Virus record (IMG/VR): IMGVR_UViG_2703718871_000027
Length of the DNA: 4,278 nucleotides
Direction: 5' to 3' (one strand)
Source: a virus
Lineage: Duplodnaviria > Heunggongvirae > Uroviricota > Caudoviricetes
The notes beneath the pieces were generated by a model. The model was not told where the DNA came from. It saw only the letters and a program-made list of their open reading frames with translations, and did not search any database. This document shows positions 1 through 3,871 of the stretch, piece by piece; positions within the stretch are counted from its first letter, which is position 1; the number at the start of each line of letters is the position of its first letter. The position numbers and the translations under genes were made by a program.

Positions 1-1230
1 ATGAGCAGAGCACTTAACAAACTGAGCGATACACAGCTGAGGAAAATCAACGGCACACCCGCCCAAAAAACAGCCTTTCTTAATGACGGTGGAAACCTGA
101 GCGTCAGGCATTCAACCAGTGGCCTTTTAACCTGGTATTTCACTTACAGGGCCGGAACGGGAAGGGGGGCACCACCGGAACGCATTAAGCTGGGAAATTA
201 TCCTGATCTGAGCCTGAAATCAGCCAGGGAAAAAGCCGCCCAGTGTCGCGCATGGCTGGCAGAGGGGAAAAATCCACGTCATGAAATGAATTACACCGTA
301 CAGGAAGCGTTAAAGCCGGTAACGGTTGGCGATGCGCTCACCTACTGGCTTGAGTCGTACGCAAAGGAAAACCGTGTGGATTATGACCCACTGAAAAAGC
401 GGCTAAATAATCACGTAATACAGCACATTGGCCCTATGCCGCTGGATAAATGCGAGCTACGGCACTGGCTGGCCTGTTTTGATCGGGTGGCAAAGAAAGC
501 CCCTGTTTCCGCCGGGTTCCTGCTACAGACATGCAAGCAGGCGCTTAAGTTCTGCAGGAAGCGGCGCTATGCAATCAGCAACGTTCTTGATGATATGAGT
601 GTGGCGGACGTTGGGAAAAAACCGGATATAAGTGAGCGTGTCTTAAGTAACAAAGAACTTGGCGAATTATTGCAGGCACTGGACAAAAAAATATTTTCCC
701 CTTACTACGTCGCACTAATCCGCCTCCTGATTGTTTTCGGATGCCGGACAGTAGAACTGAGGTTATCGGAGATCGGCGAGTGGGATTTTACCGAAATGCT
801 CTGGACCGTTCCGAAGGAGCACAGCAAAACGAAGGTAGCCATATTCCGGCCCATACCGGAAGCGATACTGCCGTTCGTCACGCAGCTGGTGGAGCAGAAC
901 AGGCACACGGGCTTATTGCTGGGGGAAGTGAAACAGGAAACCAGCGTATCGCAGTACGGCAGATTGGTGCACAGGAGGCTTAAACACCCTCACTGGTCAC
1001 TGCATGACATCCGGCGCACCTTTACAACCATGCTGAACGATTTAGGCGTTGATCCTCACGTCGTGGAGCAGCTTACAGGCCACCAGATGCCAGGAATGCA
1101 ACGCGTGTACAACCATTCCCGCTATATTGATGCGAAACGCAATGCGCTTGATATGTGGGTGGAGCGGTTGGAGATACTGGCGGGAACACATGAAAACGTA
1201 ACCACGCTACCAGTAACCAGAATAAAATAA
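1..1230 (+). CDS. int: Tyrosine recombinase, P4-type integrase family (N-terminal arm-binding domain plus C-terminal catalytic domain)
   Basis: 409-aa ORF from ATG at 1 to TAA at 1228-1230. N-terminus (LSDTQLRK...LNDGGNLSVRHSTSGLLTWYFTYR) fits the P4-integrase arm-binding domain pattern. C-terminal half has the tyrosine-recombinase catalytic residues in order: GCRTVELRLSE (Arg), HDIRRTF (His-x-x-Arg), GHQMPGMQRVYNHSRY (His and Tyr nucleophile). Window starts at the ATG, so an upstream extension cannot be excluded. Confidence 0.9.
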   Translation: MSRALNKLSDTQLRKINGTPAQKTAFLNDGGNLSVRHSTSGLLTWYFTYRAGTGRGAPPERIKLGNYPDLSLKSAREKAAQCRAWLAEGKNPRHEMNYTVQEALKPVTVGDALTYWLESYAKENRVDYDPLKKRLNNHVIQHIGPMPLDKCELRHWLACFDRVAKKAPVSAGFLLQTCKQALKFCRKRRYAISNVLDDMSVADVGKKPDISERVLSNKELGELLQALDKKIFSPYYVALIRLLIVFGCRTVELRLSEIGEWDFTEMLWTVPKEHSKTKVAIFRPIPEAILPFVTQLVEQNRHTGLLLGEVKQETSVSQYGRLVHRRLKHPHWSLHDIRRTFTTMLNDLGVDPHVVEQLTGHQMPGMQRVYNHSRYIDAKRNALDMWVERLEILAGTHENVTTLPVTRIK

Positions 1231-1280
1231 TTTTTTTCGTGTTTTTTCAGTATGCGCATACTGGATAAGTGCACAGATAC

Positions 1281-1315
1281 AACGTGAAACAATGTGCAAT
1301 AACGTGACACAATCA
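1281..1315. repeat. Two tandem copies (20-bp period) of AACGTGA(A/C)ACAAT in the int-alpA intergenic region; candidate protein-binding sites
   Basis: aacgtgaaacaatg at 1281-1294 and aacgtgacacaatc at 1301-1314. The core TGACACAATCA (1305-1315) recurs at 1535-1545. Function is inferred only. Confidence 0.3.
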
Positions 1316-1413
1316 CGAACAAGAGGCCAAAAAGAATACAGATTTATAAGTTACTGATTTTTAATGCTCAGCTGGTTTTTTATACATTAGTGAATTACGC
1401 GTTAAAGCGTGCG

Positions 1414-1450
1414 AAAAAAGGCATAAAACAAGATTTTATGCCTTTGTATT
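1414..1450. terminator. Candidate bidirectional intrinsic terminator downstream of int
   Basis: 10-bp stem aggcataaaa (1419-1428) pairs with ttttatgcct (1434-1443), loop caaga. Flanked by an A-run (1414-1418) upstream and TTGTATT (1444-1450) downstream. Stem is AT-rich, so predicted strength is modest. Confidence 0.4.
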
Positions 1451-1534
1451 AACATGAATTTAAATGATTTTATCCTGATTATTCCTCTTTCTGTAAACCA
1501 TGCGACACCAACATTTGCCAACTCTGAATCATCC

Positions 1535-1545
1535 TGACACAATCA
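1535..1545. repeat. Third copy of the TGACACAATCA motif, about 60 bp upstream of the alpA start
   Basis: Exact 11-mer shared with 1305-1315. Its position just upstream of alpA suggests a regulatory site. Confidence 0.3.
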
Positions 1546-1604
1546 GACACATCCCAACGCAATAGAACACGAAATAACTCTTTAAGAAACGAAAGGGGGC
1601 AATA

Positions 1605-1793
1605 GTGTTAAGCACTGATCGGTTTATACGTGAAAAAGAATGCGAAAAGCTAACAGGCCTTAGCCGCTCATGCCGCTACCGCCTGGAAAAGGCCGGACAA
1701 TTCCCATCACGTCGTAAACTTGGCGGGCGTTCTGTTGGCTGGTCTTTATCTGAGGTTTTGGCCTGGAAGGATAGCTGCAAGGCAGTTCACTAA
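1605..1793 (+). CDS. alpA: AlpA/Vis-family (MerR-like HTH) prophage transcriptional regulator
   Basis: 62-aa ORF with GTG start at 1605, preceded by SD AGGGGG (1594-1599, 5-nt spacer). The segment FPSRRKLGGRSVGWSLSEVLAWK matches the conserved AlpA-family signature (FP..R.LG.[KR]SVGW...E...W). Sits immediately downstream of the integrase, as in CP4-57-type elements. Confidence 0.85.
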   Translation: MLSTDRFIREKECEKLTGLSRSCRYRLEKAGQFPSRRKLGGRSVGWSLSEVLAWKDSCKAVH

Positions 1794-1833
1794 AAAGACT
1801 GGCGGCACACAGCCACCACCAATCCATTATTGA

Positions 1834-1857
1834 CCGATACCGGGATCTCGGTATCGG
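1834..1857. repeat. Perfect 9-bp inverted repeat CCGATACCG-N6-CGGTATCGG downstream of alpA
   Basis: ccgataccg (1834-1842) and cggtatcgg (1849-1857) are exact reverse complements. No U-tract follows on either strand, so a protein-binding palindrome or RNA hairpin is more likely than a canonical terminator. Confidence 0.5.
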
Positions 1858-1973
1858 GAATAAACGCCATAATACTGAGGTATAACCATGATGAAATATA
1901 CGCCCGTACAGGGGCGGGGATTCGTTCGCCCTGGTGAATCTGAAAAGCCATGCTATAGGGTATTTTCAGGCAT

Positions 1974-2001
1974 AAAAAAAGCGGTCCCGATATGGAACCG
2001 C
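1974..2001 (-). terminator. Rho-independent terminator for the leftward A1-B1 operon (weaker in the + direction)
   Basis: GC-rich hairpin gcggtcc...ggaaccgc (1981-2001). On the minus strand it is followed directly by U7 (complement of the A7 run at 1974-1980). On the + strand it is followed by CTTTCT. Lies about 70 nt downstream of the B1 stop. Confidence 0.55.
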
Positions 2002-2069
2002 CTTTCTGAACAATTAACCCGCTGCGCCGTATGTGTCAACAATCATAAGCCCGAACATGATAACCGTGA

Positions 2070-2273
2070 TCAGGCTGGTGGGCAATTACCTTGCTTGTTG
2101 GGGCCGTATTGTGCTGCCATTTTCATCCGTTCAGAACGTGAATATTTTTTTAGAAACTCATCAAGGACAAAAGCGCATGGAGCGAATCTTTCTGATTCAT
2201 GCTCGAGCGCCATATTTTCGTGCTCTCTGTTCGTTTTTTGCGATGGTGTATTGGTTGATTCTTTATTGGTCAT
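2070..2273 (-). CDS. Hypothetical small protein B1 (67 aa), second gene of leftward cassette-1 operon
   Basis: ORF from ATG (complement of 2271-2273) to TGA (complement of 2070-2072), with a weak SD (AGGT) 7 nt upstream. Paralogous to B2: shared MTN N-terminus, F[AV]L[ED][DE]F..KY.R block and PP[AG] C-terminus. Same 57-nt spacing after the A gene in both cassettes. No recognisable domain. Confidence 0.4.
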   Translation of the reverse strand: MTNKESTNTPSQKTNREHENMALEHESERFAPCAFVLDEFLKKYSRSERMKMAAQYGPNKQGNCPPA

Positions 2274-2294
2274 TGTGTGTACCTGTAAAGCAAT

Positions 2295-2321
2295 GCGCCG
2301 TAGTACCTCACGCCACGGCGC
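2295..2321 (-). other. Conserved hairpin between A1 and B1 (possible partial terminator or RNA processing site)
   Basis: Stem gcgccgt (2295-2301) pairs with acggcgc (2315-2321), 13-nt loop. On the minus strand it is followed by AUUGCUUUA. Nearly identical to the copy at 3036-3062 (one loop difference). Confidence 0.4.
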
Positions 2322-2330
2322 TGATAGTAA

Positions 2331-2510
2331 TTATTCTGATTCTTTGGCCTTGCGGCGCTGGCGGCGTTTGATCTCGCCTTTTGCTGCCGTAACTAGAAAT
2401 CCGGCGGTACTTTCGCCAGGTTCTTTAAGTTGCTCAATATCGGTCATTACCTCATGCGGGATTCTGACCGTTGTCATTTGTGATTTTGCGTTCTTTGCAC
2501 CTGTTGCCAT
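2331..2510 (-). CDS. Ribbon-helix-helix (Arc/MetJ-like) DNA-binding protein A1, 59 aa; putative cassette-1 repressor
   Basis: ATG at complement of 2508-2510, preceded by SD AGGAGA (7-nt spacer); stop TAA at complement of 2331-2333. Sequence MATGAKNAKSQMTTVRIPHEVMTDIEQLKEPGESTAGFLVTAAKGEIKRRQRRKAKESE has the RHH layout: beta-strand (TTVRIP), helix A (HEVMTDIEQL), G-x-S turn (PGES), helix B, basic tail. 63 percent identical to A2 with no gaps. The longer 134-aa track ORF (2331..2735) is rejected because it would cross the promoter/operator region. Confidence 0.65.
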   Translation of the reverse strand: MATGAKNAKSQMTTVRIPHEVMTDIEQLKEPGESTAGFLVTAAKGEIKRRQRRKAKESE

Positions 2511-2530
2511 TTCTGGTTCTCCTGATAATC

Positions 2531-2623
2531 GGTGTATTTCAGTATACGCAAAAAAAAAGATAAAAAAAGTCTTGCGGTGTATTTCACCTGAATGTAGATT
2601 TAAAAATGAAGGTGAAATACACC
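2531..2623. promoter_or_regulatory. Cassette-1 divergent promoter/operator region with three GGTGTATTTCACC-type sites
   Basis: Sites at 2531-2542 (ggtgtatttcag), 2576-2588 (ggtgtatttcacc) and, inverted, 2611-2623 (ggtgaaatacacc). Candidate rightward promoter: -35 TTGCGG (2572-2577), 17-bp spacer, -10 TAGATT (2595-2600). Candidate leftward -10 TATACT (complement of 2541-2546), overlapping the first site. Operators overlap promoter elements as expected for repression and autoregulation. Confidence 0.5.
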
Positions 2624-2634
2624 CAAAACAACAA

Positions 2635-2666
2635 CGCCCCGCAGTGATGGGAACACATACGGGGCG
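2635..2666 (+). other. Cassette-1 rightward leader hairpin (7-bp GC stem) ahead of a conserved RBS and ORF start
   Basis: cgccccg (2635-2641) pairs with cggggcg (2660-2666), 18-nt loop. Followed by TCTAACCAA, SD GAGG (2686-2689) and ATG 2698. The same order of elements occurs in cassette 2 (hairpin 3385-3411, TCTAACCAA, GAGGAG, ATG 3444). Confidence 0.4.
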
Positions 2667-2747
2667 TCTAACCAAACCATTAATTGAGGTAACGATTATG
2701 GCTATAAAAGAGCATAGCTTACTCTTTATACACACACAAACGCCCCG

Positions 2748-2767
2748 GAAACGGAATAATCCGTTTC
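2748..2767 (-). terminator. Weak hairpin at the 3' end of the cassette-2 leftward operon (downstream of B2)
   Basis: gaaacgg (2748-2754) pairs with ccgtttc (2761-2767), loop aataat. On the minus strand it is followed by a G/U-rich stretch (CGGGGCGUUUGUGUGUGU), not a clean U-tract. On the + strand a displaced T-run (2777-2780) follows. Confidence 0.3.
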
Positions 2768-2786
2768 ATAGTTCGGTTTTGTGCAC

Positions 2787-3014
2787 TCATCCTGGCGGTC
2801 GGTTTTTGCCGGATTTAAGCCGCCGTGGGTATTTATCGACAAAATCTTCAAGGGCAAATTTTTCTGGTGGCACTAAGCGCGGCGCTGGTGGTGGTATTTT
2901 TGTTCTGGTTAGTTCTTCCTCAACTCTGGCGCAGGCTTCTGACTGCCTTTGCCGGATGATTTCATCATCTTGCGTTTGCGTGTCTTGTATTGGTGATAGT
3001 GTGTTGTTGGTCAT
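2787..3014 (-). CDS. Hypothetical small protein B2 (75 aa, Pro/charge-rich), second gene of leftward cassette-2 operon
   Basis: ATG at complement of 3012-3014 with SD AGGG 7 nt upstream; stop TGA at complement of 2787-2789. Paralog of B1 with the same gene order and 57-nt spacing after the A gene. No recognisable domain. Confidence 0.4.
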   Translation of the reverse strand: MTNNTLSPIQDTQTQDDEIIRQRQSEACARVEEELTRTKIPPPAPRLVPPEKFALEDFVDKYPRRLKSGKNRPPG

Positions 3015-3035
3015 GATACTGCCCTGTAAAGCAAT

Positions 3036-3062
3036 GCGCCGTAGTACCTCACACCACGGCGC
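3036..3062 (-). other. Conserved hairpin between A2 and B2 (copy of 2295-2321)
   Basis: Stem gcgccgt (3036-3042) pairs with acggcgc (3056-3062). Identical stem and near-identical loop to the cassette-1 copy. Confidence 0.4.
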
Positions 3063-3071
3063 TGATAGTGA

Positions 3072-3251
3072 TTATTCTGATTCTTTGGCCTTGCGACGCT
3101 GGCGGTATTCAACTTCCCGCTTTAATGCAGCTGTAACAAACTGCCCTGTACTTTCGCCGGGCATTTTTACCGCCTCAACATTGTTCATAACTTCATGTGG
3201 AACCCTTGCCGCAACTGTTTGTGATTTTGCGTTTACTGCTTTTGTCGCCAT
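3072..3251 (-). CDS. Ribbon-helix-helix (Arc/MetJ-like) DNA-binding protein A2, 59 aa; putative cassette-2 repressor
   Basis: ATG at complement of 3249-3251 with SD GAGGGG 8 nt upstream (an in-frame GTG 9 nt further upstream is possible but has no SD); stop TAA at complement of 3072-3074. Sequence MATKAVNAKSQTVAARVPHEVMNNVEAVKMPGESTGQFVTAALKREVEYRQRRKAKESE aligns with the Arc repressor fold pattern (beta-strand, P-x-E-V helix A, G-x-S turn, helix B). Paralog of A1. Confidence 0.65.
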   Translation of the reverse strand: MATKAVNAKSQTVAARVPHEVMNNVEAVKMPGESTGQFVTAALKREVEYRQRRKAKESE

Positions 3252-3280
3252 GTTGAGCACCCCTCATAAAAAACAAATGC

Positions 3281-3354
3281 AGTATGCAGGAAAAAAAACA
3301 AGTGTTCAACACTTGACGTGTTTAACACCTCGATTTAAATTGGTGTTCAACACC
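3281..3354. promoter_or_regulatory. Cassette-2 divergent promoter/operator region with three GTGTT-N-AACAC palindromes
   Basis: Palindromes at 3302-3312 (gtgttcaacac), 3318-3328 (gtgtttaacac) and 3342-3354 (ggtgttcaacacc). Rightward promoter: -35 TTGACG (3313-3318), 17-bp spacer, -10 TAAATT (3336-3341); the sites sit upstream of -35, in the spacer, and over the predicted start site. Leftward promoter: -35 TTGAAC (complement of 3304-3309, inside the first site), 17-bp spacer, -10 CATACT (complement of 3281-3286). Confidence 0.55.
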
Positions 3355-3384
3355 TTATTTAGGCAAGGTGTAGAAACGACGAAA

Positions 3385-3411
3385 CCCCGCACTGTAGGAG
3401 CAGTAACGGGG
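3385..3411 (+). other. Cassette-2 rightward leader hairpin (counterpart of 2635-2666)
   Basis: Outer stem ccccg (3385-3389) pairs with cgggg (3407-3411); inner stem actg (3391-3394) pairs with cagt (3401-3404); loop taggag. Followed by TCTAACCAA, SD GAGGAG (3433-3438) and ATG 3444. Confidence 0.4.
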
Positions 3412-3443
3412 CTTCTAACCAACAACGTAAACGAGGAGCCGTT

Positions 3444-3638
3444 ATGGTTGCCGTAAATCATATACCACACCTTGTACACACACAAACGGCCTTTGTGTGG
3501 CGTTTTCTGGCACTGAGTGCCGGAGAATCTCAAATAATCCACGTAACCGCCTGGACGGAACGCGAAGCACGTAACCGTTGCCCGTCAGGTTGTGTTGCTG
3601 TATTCGCCGCCCGTATTCGCCAGGGGGTAGGCTTATGA
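3444..3638 (+). CDS. Hypothetical protein (64 aa), first gene of rightward operon
   Basis: Strong SD GAGGAG with 5-nt spacer to ATG 3444. N-terminus M-[AV]-[IV]-x-x-H-x-x-x-[FL]-[IV]-H-T-Q-T is shared with the cassette-1 start at 2698. Stop TGA (3636-3638) overlaps the next ATG (ATGA), indicating translational coupling. Caveat: hairpins lie inside codons 12-27, so the 5' part may act as RNA. Confidence 0.45.
   Translation: MVAVNHIPHLVHTQTAFVWRFLALSAGESQIIHVTAWTEREARNRCPSGCVAVFAARIRQGVGL
3479..3508 (+). terminator. Terminator/attenuator-like hairpin inside the 5' end of ORF 3444-3638
   Basis: cacacaaa (3479-3486) pairs with tttgtgtg (3492-3499), loop cggcc, followed by GCGTTTTCT (3500-3508). 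A second hairpin follows immediately: ctggcac-tga-gtgccgg (3507-3523). Confidence 0.3.
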
Positions 3639-3871
3639 ACAATAACATCCGTCCGGACGCAGCCGCCGAAGCCATCATAACGCTAATGCATGCGCTGATT
3701 GATATTTCTGTTATTGCTGACAAGGCGCATAAGCACGCCACCAGTGAAACAGAATATGCAGGGGCTTTCGTTCCTCATTCGCTGGCGGTTATGCAACTTA
3801 GTGCTGATATGGCGCTGAATGAGGCAGGCAAAATTCTTACCGCAGATATTCAAGGGGCGCACCATGCATGA
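3635..3871 (+). CDS. Hypothetical protein (78 aa), translationally coupled
   Basis: ATG 3635 preceded by SD AGGGGG (3622-3627, 7-nt spacer); the start overlaps the stop of the upstream ORF. The track ORF starting at 3578 has no SD, so the internal start is preferred. No recognisable motif. Confidence 0.5.
   Translation: MNNNIRPDAAAEAIITLMHALIDISVIADKAHKHATSETEYAGAFVPHSLAVMQLSADMALNEAGKILTADIQGAHHA

Follow-up and report, generated by a model that had tools for sequence, protein, structure and literature searches.

Gram-negative phage-inducible chromosomal islands (PICIs) and their capsid-forming relatives (cf-PICIs) are major vehicles of gene transfer, and their silencing and induction by helper phages are known only in the form that AlpA is required. 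What, then, holds such an island silent? The question is raised by a 4,278-nucleotide stretch of viral DNA (IMG/VR record IMGVR_UViG_2703718871_000027; hereafter the window), which we assign to the left end of an Escherichia coli cf-PICI and which spans the integrase gene int to the gene of a DUF4222 protein. Downstream of int and alpA, at positions 2070-3510, lie two units of ~0.74 kb, arranged head to tail. Each contains a leftward gene, here called A, for a ribbon-helix-helix (RHH) protein, set beside predicted operators at divergent promoters. As set out below, the cassette is a good candidate for the silencing system missing in Gram-negative PICIs.

The initial annotation had not recognised the twin arrangement from characterised regulatory regions, and we likewise found no description of the cassette or of its tandem form in the openly searchable literature. 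The 2018 founding paper left the existence of a Gram-negative PICI repressor open, and in a 2025 cf-PICI paper the gene that follows alpA figures as a variable region whose function is unknown. A 2023 survey describes Bro-N proteins and P4-like immunity RNAs in the zone after alpA; RHH proteins are not mentioned.

Anatomy and predicted DNA specificity of the two units

The order of parts is the same in both units. A leftward gene B, a conserved hairpin and the leftward RHH gene A are followed by a pair of divergent promoters with three 13-bp operators, and these by a leader hairpin, TCTAACCAA and the beginning of an icd-like open reading frame (ORF). Direct repeats at 2263-2387 and 3004-3128 are offset by 741 nt, a second pair at 2650-2675 and 3397-3422 is offset by 747 nt, and alignment of the full units gave 76% column identity. 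With all the listed parts present, the description of two ~0.74-kb units with one architecture stands. The offset of 741 (3 x 247) that had been given for the pair applies to the first repeat; in the leader it is 747. The leftward ORFs were also confirmed, with B1 (2070-2273, minus strand), A1 (2331-2510, minus strand), B2 (2787-3014, minus strand) and A2 (3072-3251, minus strand) all in one common frame, as annotated.

At 2282-2367 and 3023-3108 the units share an 86-nt core repeat (83/86 identical) that takes in the start region of B, a hairpin and the 12 codons that end A (..RRKAKESE). The hairpin (GCGCCGT..ACGGCGC; 2295-2321 in unit 1 and 3036-3062 in unit 2) was found in all E. coli cassettes. 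It is thermodynamically unexceptional (z -1.1) and varies too little for a covariation test. One locus in a P4-like or AntA/B-type island (L049) carries a compensatory C-G to U-A change in this hairpin (GCGCTGT...ACAGCGC; 3211-3237). There, a B-like gene and the core hairpin have no adjoining A gene and are followed by 'ash'/icd genes; thus, core hairpin and B can occur without the RHH gene.

A1 and A2, the candidate distal and proximal repressors, belong to the YlcI/YnfO family. They scored 62.1 bits (3.8e-17) and 59.7 bits, respectively, against the family hidden Markov model (HMM) NF041551, both above its curated cut-off of 30 bits, and are 61% identical to each other. With a beta-strand and two helices in ~45 residues, A has the RHH (Arc/MetJ/CopG) fold, and an AlphaFold model (predicted local distance difference test score 86.5) shows the strand-helix-helix topology. 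Comparison of A1 with A1-type orthologues revealed 23-35 nucleotide differences per 156, 18-29 of them at third codon positions of A, and 2-6 changed residues of 52, a pattern that indicates purifying selection on A in its own frame. We found no paper on the function of the YlcI/YnfO family in the searchable literature, and Pfam gave nothing significant for A or B. A tblastn search with A1 for A-like decoys encoded by helpers gave no match at 1e-3 among 50,697 phage records, and comparison of the DNA of the region with phages gave one irrelevant 79-bp match only. In L005, whose island also has a BRO-N gene, the distal A of a further tandem is a YlcI/YnfO variant of 101 residues (3026-3331, minus strand); 42 extra residues separate its RHH domain from the conserved RRKAKESE at the C-terminus.

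The B proteins are small orphans of 67 (B1; phrog_21027, function unknown; WP_000182306 in relatives) and 75 residues (B2, which has no Pfam domain). They are ~38% identical and have in common an N-terminal MTN... and the motif F.L..F..KY.R. Within the family the N-terminal half varies and the C-terminus, KFALEDFVxKYPRRLKSGKNRPPG, is conserved. Homologues of B are confined to E. coli; in the loci of other species A is followed directly by a terminator.

The sites that we regard as operators are three 13-mers per unit. In the control region of unit 1 (2531-2623) they occupy 2531-2543, 2576-2588 and 2611-2623, together with a predicted leftward -10 (AGTATA, 2541-2546) and a predicted rightward promoter (TTGCGG, 2572-2577; TAGATT, 2595-2600). 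In that of unit 2 (3281-3354) they lie at 3301-3313, 3317-3329 and 3342-3354, with AGTATG (3281-3286) as the predicted leftward -10 and TTGACG (3313-3318) and TAAATT (3336-3341) as the predicted rightward promoter. Three palindromes per unit had been noted before. That number is right; in unit 2 the third site lies just upstream of the -35, not over the leftward -10. Across the window, GGTGTATTTCACC-type sites occur at 2531, 2576 and 2611 only and GGTGTTCAACACC-type sites at 3301, 3317 and 3342 only. The chance expectation is ~0.1 per operator type, and the observed counts were reached in 0/200 shuffles.

Side-by-side comparison of ~30 loci or cassettes from ~20 genera or lineages revealed that the architecture of the control region is kept. 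Rightward from the start of A, a GGTG-N5-CA site ~20 nt away overlaps CAGTATAC (TATACT on the A strand). An A-tract follows, and then cTTGAcGTG-N5-CAC(C), in which the -35 is fused to the second site. The -10 lies ~17 nt farther on, followed by a third site (GGTG-N5-CACC), a GC-rich hairpin, TCTAACCA, a Shine-Dalgarno (SD) sequence and the ATG of an icd-like gene.

Among ~30 cassettes, the N5 core of the operators changes only where the beta-strand of A changes. The strand SQMTTVRIPH is found with the core TATTT (unit 1 of the window; Yersinia, Hafnia, Enterobacter, Pectobacterium and Xenorhabdus; the E. coli PICIs L052 and L053), and SQTVAARVPH is found with TTCAA (unit 2; Edwardsiella and Pectobacterium). 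Other alleles pair SKKLEARVPH with GCTGA, SQSVTARIAH with TAAGA, and SQKLQARAPH with GGAATCC. The prototype EDL933-type island (L006) has an unrelated Arc-like RHH protein with GGTAATTACC sites and an unchanged core hairpin and leader; this allele matches the PHROG 'Arc-like repressor' family. This joint variation of beta-strand and operator core from allele to allele makes it very probable that A is a repressor with sequence specificity for the 13-mers.

The exchange of alleles is also visible as a mosaic. Tandem locus L007 is 98-100% identical to the window up to ~3105, 53-60% identical over 3105-3400 and 91-96% identical from the leader on, and the breakpoints enclose exactly the head of A and the operators. 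Read from the sequences, the locus varies as immunity regions with hetero-immune alleles do. The initial annotation had placed the greatest divergence between the units where specificity would reside, and the beta-strand and the operator cores are indeed what differs most. The operator types do not cross-occur. Its proposal of two regulatory cassettes of different predicted DNA specificity is supported.

The leader is conserved as a structure. Over 33 distinct leaders, 89% of the cells of an 11-pair hairpin are paired and 9/11 pairs carry compensatory changes; these values were reached in 0/500 shuffles, and slid controls gave 31-46%. The count was made on a hand-drawn 11-pair structure, because RNAalifold on a MAFFT alignment recovered just 6 pairs owing to register shifts. 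In nearly all leaders TCTAACCA stands directly 3′ of the hairpin. In the window, the hairpins lie at 2635-2666 and 3385-3411 (both plus strand) and are followed by TCTAACCAA at 2667-2675 and 3414-3422. The leader matched no Rfam family, including the P4/P1 immunity RNAs C4 and isrK. Scans of the whole window (E up to 1) and of 2500-3560 (E up to 10) gave only sub-threshold chance matches (BSnc120, InvR and CRISPR-DR3), and models RF01695 (C4), RF01394 (isrK) and RF03163 (c4-a1b1) had no match in the window in a search that detects all three in P4. A nut-like (boxB-boxA) reading of the hairpin with GC(U/G)UCUAACCAA was rejected: ~8/13 positions match the rrn boxA, and the hairpin loop is not conserved.

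Downstream of the leaders, SD sequences precede rightward ORFs that begin with ATG at 2698 in unit 1 and at 3444 in unit 2 and have in common the block TACACACACAAACG (2729 and 3475). The rightward ORF start that had been described for each unit thus represents different things. Unit 2 has an intact icd/kil-like gene (3444-3638, plus strand; NF033153, 5e-18), the first of the rightward replication operon. Unit 1 has a remnant of such a gene, 15 codons long (MAIKEHSLLFIHTQT; 2698-2742, plus strand, ending with ACG at 2740-2742), fused to the 3′ flank of B2 and in frame with the open plus-strand frame of unit 2.

Distribution of the cassette and origin of the tandem

We surveyed one genome per species in other Enterobacterales, which yielded 38 loci, and 5426 complete E. 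coli genomes. All 38 loci of other species (from genera including Xenorhabdus, Yersinia, Pectobacterium, Hafnia, Enterobacter, Klebsiella, Kosakonia, Cedecea and Edwardsiella) carry a single A. Where flanking sequence is available, most have int and alpA upstream and several have an icd-like gene downstream. A single cassette is also present in most E. coli loci: most E. coli relatives match a probe from 2625-2860 only to ~2745 and then continue as an intact icd-like gene. At least 80% of the junction probe was found in ~121 of the E. coli genomes and at least 80% of the whole 1600-3640 stretch in 38; a genome can hold up to 6 related places. Whether single- and double-cassette versions both exist at this locus, a question raised with the initial annotation, has a plain answer: both occur.

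The units had been described as diverged paralogues, which the comparison with single cassettes contradicts. A1 and A2 are each closer to a single-cassette A of other genera than to one another. A1-type singles with the same operators and 85-93% amino acid identity occur in Yersinia, Hafnia, Enterobacter, Pectobacterium and Xenorhabdus, and two classical E. coli PICIs (L052, at the cspD site, and L053, of the AntA/B type) carry an A that is 97% identical to A1, two residues from it, with the same operator cores. A2-type singles occur in Pectobacterium and in Edwardsiella, where A is 100% identical over 57 residues and the operators are the same. Because of these relationships, A1 and A2 are best read as old pre-existing alleles joined by recombination, not as copies that diverged in place. 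In Edwardsiella hoshinae NBRC 105699 (L011, 4001-4340), the A that is identical to A2 over 57 residues stands beside the same three TTCAA operators in an island whose int is only 22% identical. Thus, the A2 allele is shared between genera without the rest of the element.

The join lies at ~2743-2750, where the 3′ flank of B2 adjoins icd codon 15. The partners share no homology there, which indicates an illegitimate founding event. The junction and the flank (2743-2786) contain a perfect 8-bp hairpin, GAAACGGA-ATAA-TCCGTTTC (2748-2767), and no strong terminator on either strand. A second, different junction, with 15 more nt of icd and another flank, was found in L050. It is without the GAAACGGA-ATAA-TCCGTTTC hairpin and keeps the native icd hairpin CACACAAACGGCCTTTGTGTG; the hairpin at 2748-2767 may have been the original terminator of B2.

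Tandems come in at least six combinations of distal and proximal allele: A1 with A2, A1 with A2′, A1 with A2″, an EDL-like allele with A2′, an EDL-like allele with A2″, and the 101-residue YlcI variant with another A. They occupy at least three attachment sites (roxA, tqsA and others) and are found with three replication modules (RepA, primase and DUF927) and different integrases. In 11/11 tandem loci, neither the distal A ORF nor any of its three operators is damaged. Loss is visible as well, as single-cassette locus L003 corresponds to tandem L007 minus one unit, with the crossover within the core repeat. Together, these comparisons suggest that tandems persist or recur, are reshuffled by homologous recombination in conserved blocks and can collapse to a single cassette. 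The earlier view of two maintained switches is unproven: the intact distal cassettes and the variety of combinations fit it, and the rarity of the tandem and the ease with which it is lost through the core repeats count against it.

An open frame across the units and the possible role of the distal cassette

Between alpA and icd, one plus-strand frame is stop-free for 525 codons (1879-3456; SD GAGG at 1876 and ATG at 1888). It runs antisense through B1, A1, B2, A2 and both control regions and ends 12 nt past the icd ATG, out of frame with it. In the window the frame stays continuous because the unit length of 741 is 3 x 247. The initial annotation had missed this frame, which accompanies the common frame of the four leftward genes, as well as the icd/kil-like nature of the rightward ORF and the cf-PICI identity of the element. 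The same relative frame, whose third codon positions coincide with those of A, is open in 24/24 cassettes. Past the ends of A it continues for a median of 322 nt and 370 nt on the two sides; the other two plus-strand frames go on for only 13-40 nt. Openness within the genes is unsurprising (P 0.3-0.7 per gene with random synonymous codons). For the non-coding parts of the window, shuffling gave P ~1e-7, and the region between A and icd is open in 16/16 loci (P 0.006-0.09 each). In three single-cassette loci (L006, L052 and L053), in tandem L005 and in most loci of other species, the frame starts at or near the alpA stop and runs in frame to the icd stop (2695-3696 in L006, 2312-3241 in L052 and 2511-4472 in L005); in several E. 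coli islands it ends at a TAA inside TCTAACCAA. In both junction types, the icd remnant reads into the open frame of unit 2 without a shift.

Could this frame be the real gene, an Eta-like ORF after alpA that makes the leftward A and B antisense artefacts? It is stop-free far beyond chance, PGAP and PHROG 29966 include long calls of such a kind, and published maps show all genes in one direction. We nevertheless consider this highly improbable. Over the length of A, substitutions alter 2-3 times as many residues in the plus-strand frame as in the A frame, and A has a confident RHH model and a family HMM of its own. Translation of the plus-strand frame is not conserved outside the part antisense to A, and at 1888-2040 substitutions fall evenly over its codon positions (8/9/10, 9/13/9 and 9/9/7); we rejected it as protein-coding. 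The frame seems to be kept open, not kept coding.

Calls in this frame coexist with omissions on the other strand. In E. coli O157:H7 EC4115 (L006), RefSeq/PGAP leaves uncalled both the gene of the Arc-like RHH protein (3195-3368, minus strand) and a B-like gene (2964-3152, minus strand), and the antisense open frame is annotated as an 'Icd-like pseudogene'; elsewhere, pieces of the frame are called 'ash family protein' pseudogenes. Annotation errors of this kind, with the leftward RHH gene of O157:H7 uncalled and pieces of the open frame called pseudogenes, conceal the system.

In a model that we hold to be probable, with some reserve, the units are immunity switches of Gram-negative PICIs and cf-PICIs that work through a protein, and the window carries two pre-existing alleles in series. 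In this model, A would be transcribed leftward, in this lineage together with B, and would bind the three 13-bp GTG-N5-CAC operators over its own promoter and over the -35/+1 of the rightward promoter. The latter would drive the structured leader, the icd/kil-like gene, and the replication and packaging genes, and A would thereby hold the island silent. By analogy with P4 vis-eta/kil, transcription that starts at the alpA promoter, once a helper has activated it, would be accompanied by translation across the switch and could reach the operon.

Of the two alleles in series, the proximal one (A2, TTCAA operators) would gate the operon directly and the distal one (A1, TATTT operators) would repress its own promoter pair. 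One illegitimate event would have fused icd codon 15 to the 3′ flank of B2, and the arrangement would since have been kept, reshuffled or lost through homologous recombination in the core and leader blocks. The unit-1 rightward transcript could be translated from the icd remnant, in frame across unit 2 up to the icd start, and by P4 logic would reach the icd operon, running antisense to A2. The outcome would be a second, independently repressed input into the operon, under the control of A1, together with a supply of A1 in trans; A1 may also act in trans on A1-type E. coli PICIs. Leftward transcripts may cover A2-B2-A1-B1, because no strong terminator lies between the units. The distal switch as a second input into the same operon is the reading that we prefer for a role that is unproven.

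A more ambitious version, which we offer only tentatively and think rather unlikely, is that the cassette provides Gram-negative PICIs and cf-PICIs with the master repressor that they have seemed to lack, that the allele sets the inducing helper or signal, and that the tandem is a two-input OR gate that widens the helper range and links the fate of the island to that of PICIs with an A1 switch. Loss of either repressor, or read-through driven from alpA, would send translated, termination-resistant transcripts into the icd-replication-packaging operon. Such a gate is possible because of the in-frame icd remnant and the stop-free antisense frame.

Several observations weigh against the second-input model and the switch that it presumes. 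Published work credits induction to AlpA, with no repressor needed. The binding of A to the operators and the firing of the four promoters are predicted from sequence; in a promoter scan, sites were no more numerous than expected by chance and the unit-2 rightward promoter alone scored. No function could be detected for B, which is missing outside E. coli. A single plus-strand frame crosses both units in only 4 tandem loci (plus L002, without an early start codon) and is split into two in 5 others. The tandem is rare (~2% of genomes and ~9% of the genomes with this leader). Its distal unit is 100% identical in L001, L002, L007, L008 and the window, so its spread could be recent and neutral. 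The unit-1 -35 is TTGCGG, as opposed to TTGAAG or TTGACG in A1-type singles, and the distal rightward promoter may be weakened.

Some of these points would also fit a distal cassette that is a passenger, that is, the recombination scar of one illegitimate join between satellites, intact only because it is recent and without effect. The junction is confined to 121/5426 genomes, the identity of unit 1 extends to four tandem loci and the window, its rightward gene is a 15-codon remnant and its -35 has decayed in comparison with singles; loss is made easy by the direct repeat of the 86-bp core, and L003 resembles such a loss. On the other hand, a neutral scar is harder to reconcile with distal A ORFs and operators that are all intact, and the six or more allele combinations with different integrases and replication modules, together with the second junction in L050, point to persistence or recurrence. 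If expressed, an RHH protein whose operators are intact would, at the least, regulate itself and affect A1-type PICIs in trans. We therefore regard a mere passenger as a serious possibility that we lean against. A different use of the distal cassette would be immunity between satellites, with A1 silencing or co-regulating PICIs that have A1 operators in the same cell and playing no role in the induction of its own island. That L052 and L053 have an A two residues from A1 and the same operator cores, that an E. coli genome holds up to 6 related places, and that the operator sets of the two units do not cross-occur all speak for such immunity. As the sole role it appears doubtful to us, and it is compatible with the second-input model, not exclusive of it.

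A role of A and B as duplicated cargo of the island, paired as a type II toxin-antitoxin or anti-phage defence system, is very unlikely. B is absent beside A in 38/38 loci of other species, where a terminator comes after A, and has no toxin-like family match. PADLOC detected no significant defence family for A or B, a match of Cas8g to B1 being far below any cut-off. Operator sites lie over the promoter that drives the replication operon, and the cassette stands where P4 has its immunity region.

Although the tandem alone would be a modest curiosity, the cassette that it exposes gives the region after alpA a concrete anatomy, with an RHH protein, allele-specific operators, a covarying leader hairpin and a P4-like open frame, and makes the silencing and helper specificity of Gram-negative PICIs directly testable. 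As a natural experiment with two specificities in series, the tandem could show whether the allele sets helper range or immunity between satellites.

Island context and relation to known systems

The window starts with a tyrosine integrase gene (1-1230, plus strand; Pfam Arm-DNA-bind_3 and Phage_integrase) that is 100% identical to int of the cf-PICIs at the roxA site, L001 and L004. The AlpA-family gene alpA (1605-1793, plus strand; Pfam Phage_AlpA, 5e-18) encodes the activator required for PICI induction (PMC6092414; 10.1101/2022.09.08.507074). After the four small leftward ORFs, a rightward run begins with the icd-like gene at 3444-3638 and reaches the DUF4222 gene. Two E. coli chromosomes carry close relatives, NZ_CP023165 (97.8% identical across 1-3527) and NZ_CP146507 (99.2% across 1600-3628). 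Both continue with genes for RepA helicase, SSB, PerC, major capsid protein, prohead protease, portal, head closure, connector, HNH, TerS and TerL, and the whole element lies between roxA and phoQ or within tqsA. Capsid-forming PICIs of the EcCIEDL933 type have this set of genes (10.1101/2022.09.08.507074). We counted as cf-PICIs elements of ~15 kb with an int-alpA left end, a replication module and their own capsid, protease, portal, head-tail connector, HNH, TerS and TerL genes. The set is complete in L001 and L002, which are 97-99% identical to the window; the window itself covers the left end only. Because near-identical loci carry the EcCIEDL933-type set, we assign the window to the left end of a cf-PICI. 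Compared with the EDL933-type island of O157:H7 (L006), int is 95%, alpA 98% and icd 98% identical.

Two minus-strand hairpins lie between alpA and B1. The main intrinsic terminator of the leftward operon (1974-2008, minus strand) folds with -21.2 kcal/mol (z -3.7) and is followed by U7; on the plus strand its stem is interrupted (-12.5 kcal/mol). The second (1796-1825, minus strand) folds with -17.0 kcal/mol (z -3.0) and is followed by UCUUUUU, as against just -8.5 kcal/mol on the plus strand. Both are minus-strand-specific because G-U pairs of the minus strand turn into C-A mismatches on the plus strand. It is plausible that the terminators at 2008-1974 and 1825-1796 would end leftward A-B transcripts and let rightward alpA transcripts pass.

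Just 3′ of int lies a perfect 16-bp palindrome, CAGTATGCGCATACTG (1248-1263, plus strand). It has CAGTAT(G/A)C in common with the conserved block over the predicted leftward -10 of both cassettes (2540-2547 and 3280-3287) and could be a site for AlpA, Int or another factor. In the spacer between int and alpA, the Rfam model of the Brucella small RNA BSnc120 matched 1381-1462 (plus strand) with 27 bits against a gathering score of 114 (E 0.003), most likely by chance. The same segment holds a hairpin, GGCATAAAACAAGATTTTATGCC, followed by TTTG, and is terminator-like.

Among known systems, satellite P4 offers the closest frame of reference for the gene order. In both, int, an AlpA-family gene (vis in P4), an immunity determinant with an internal promoter, an Icd/Kil-like gene and replication genes follow one another in that order. 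Both also have a long frame that is open from at or near the alpA/vis stop across the immunity determinant and, in many loci, is in frame with kil/icd. In P4 itself, kil belongs to a frame of 217 codons that stays free of stops upstream across cI, seqA and PLE and reaches past the stop codon of vis. The read-through logic of P4 is said to rest on work by Forti et al. that appeared in J Bacteriol in 1999. NF033153 (Icd/Kil-like; curated cut-off 25 bits) scores 64.9 bits with 3444-3638 of the window and 76.1 bits (1.6e-21) with P4 Kil. BLASTP of the window Icd against P4 Kil gave no match, and the link rests on the common family HMM. A summary of the P4 read-through logic is available (PMC10111431). 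The two differ in the immunity determinant: in P4 it is the CI RNA (Rfam C4), acting on seqA (isrK), whereas here the candidate is an opposite-strand RHH protein with predicted DNA operators, and P4 has one copy where the window has two. By this analogy, the cassette would occupy the P4 immunity slot (PLE-seqA-cI), with a protein repressor replacing the CI RNA. An old coding sequence in the P4 record NC_001609 (L054; 8168-8584, minus strand), labelled 'cI gene product / transcriptional repressor', overlaps the CI RNA gene in a frame that differs from kil. It probably explains the 'transcriptional repressor' label on the Icd-matching phrog_1743 and phrog_6196.

Phage P22 immI (Arc and Mnt; Pant/Pmnt) resembles the proposed switch as a device, with small RHH repressors, short palindromic operators over divergent promoters, autoregulation and gating of a lytic operon. 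Unlike it, the cassette encodes an A of the YlcI/YnfO family, has three operators of one kind, is followed by a structured leader and an icd-like gene, and sits in an antisense open frame; and the window has two tandem units where immI has two different repressors in one region. Immunity region immI of P1 (c4 RNA-icd-ant) likewise places a regulatory leader directly before an icd-family gene that heads an operon; the window, however, is without a C4-type RNA, and its leader is a single ~30-nt hairpin followed by TCTAACCA.

The Stl (Rpr)-Str switch of Staphylococcus aureus pathogenicity islands (SaPIs) and Gram-positive PICIs also sets a leftward repressor divergent from a rightward excision-replication-packaging operon and exists in many alleles that are thought to set helper specificity. 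Stl proteins are large helix-turn-helix repressors relieved by helper proteins, whereas no anti-repressor is known for A, and Gram-negative PICIs have been described as AlpA-activated with no known repressor (PMC6092414). In lambdoid imm regions, as here, repressor head and operators are swapped as a block between conserved flanks and form an allelic series across genera; those have one immunity region per locus, in contrast to the two tandem alleles in the same slot of the window. Thus, the switch would belong to a familiar class, that of RHH repressors acting at divergent promoters (P22 immI is an example), placed within a nested frame like that of P4; the combination seems undescribed, and its tandem form new.

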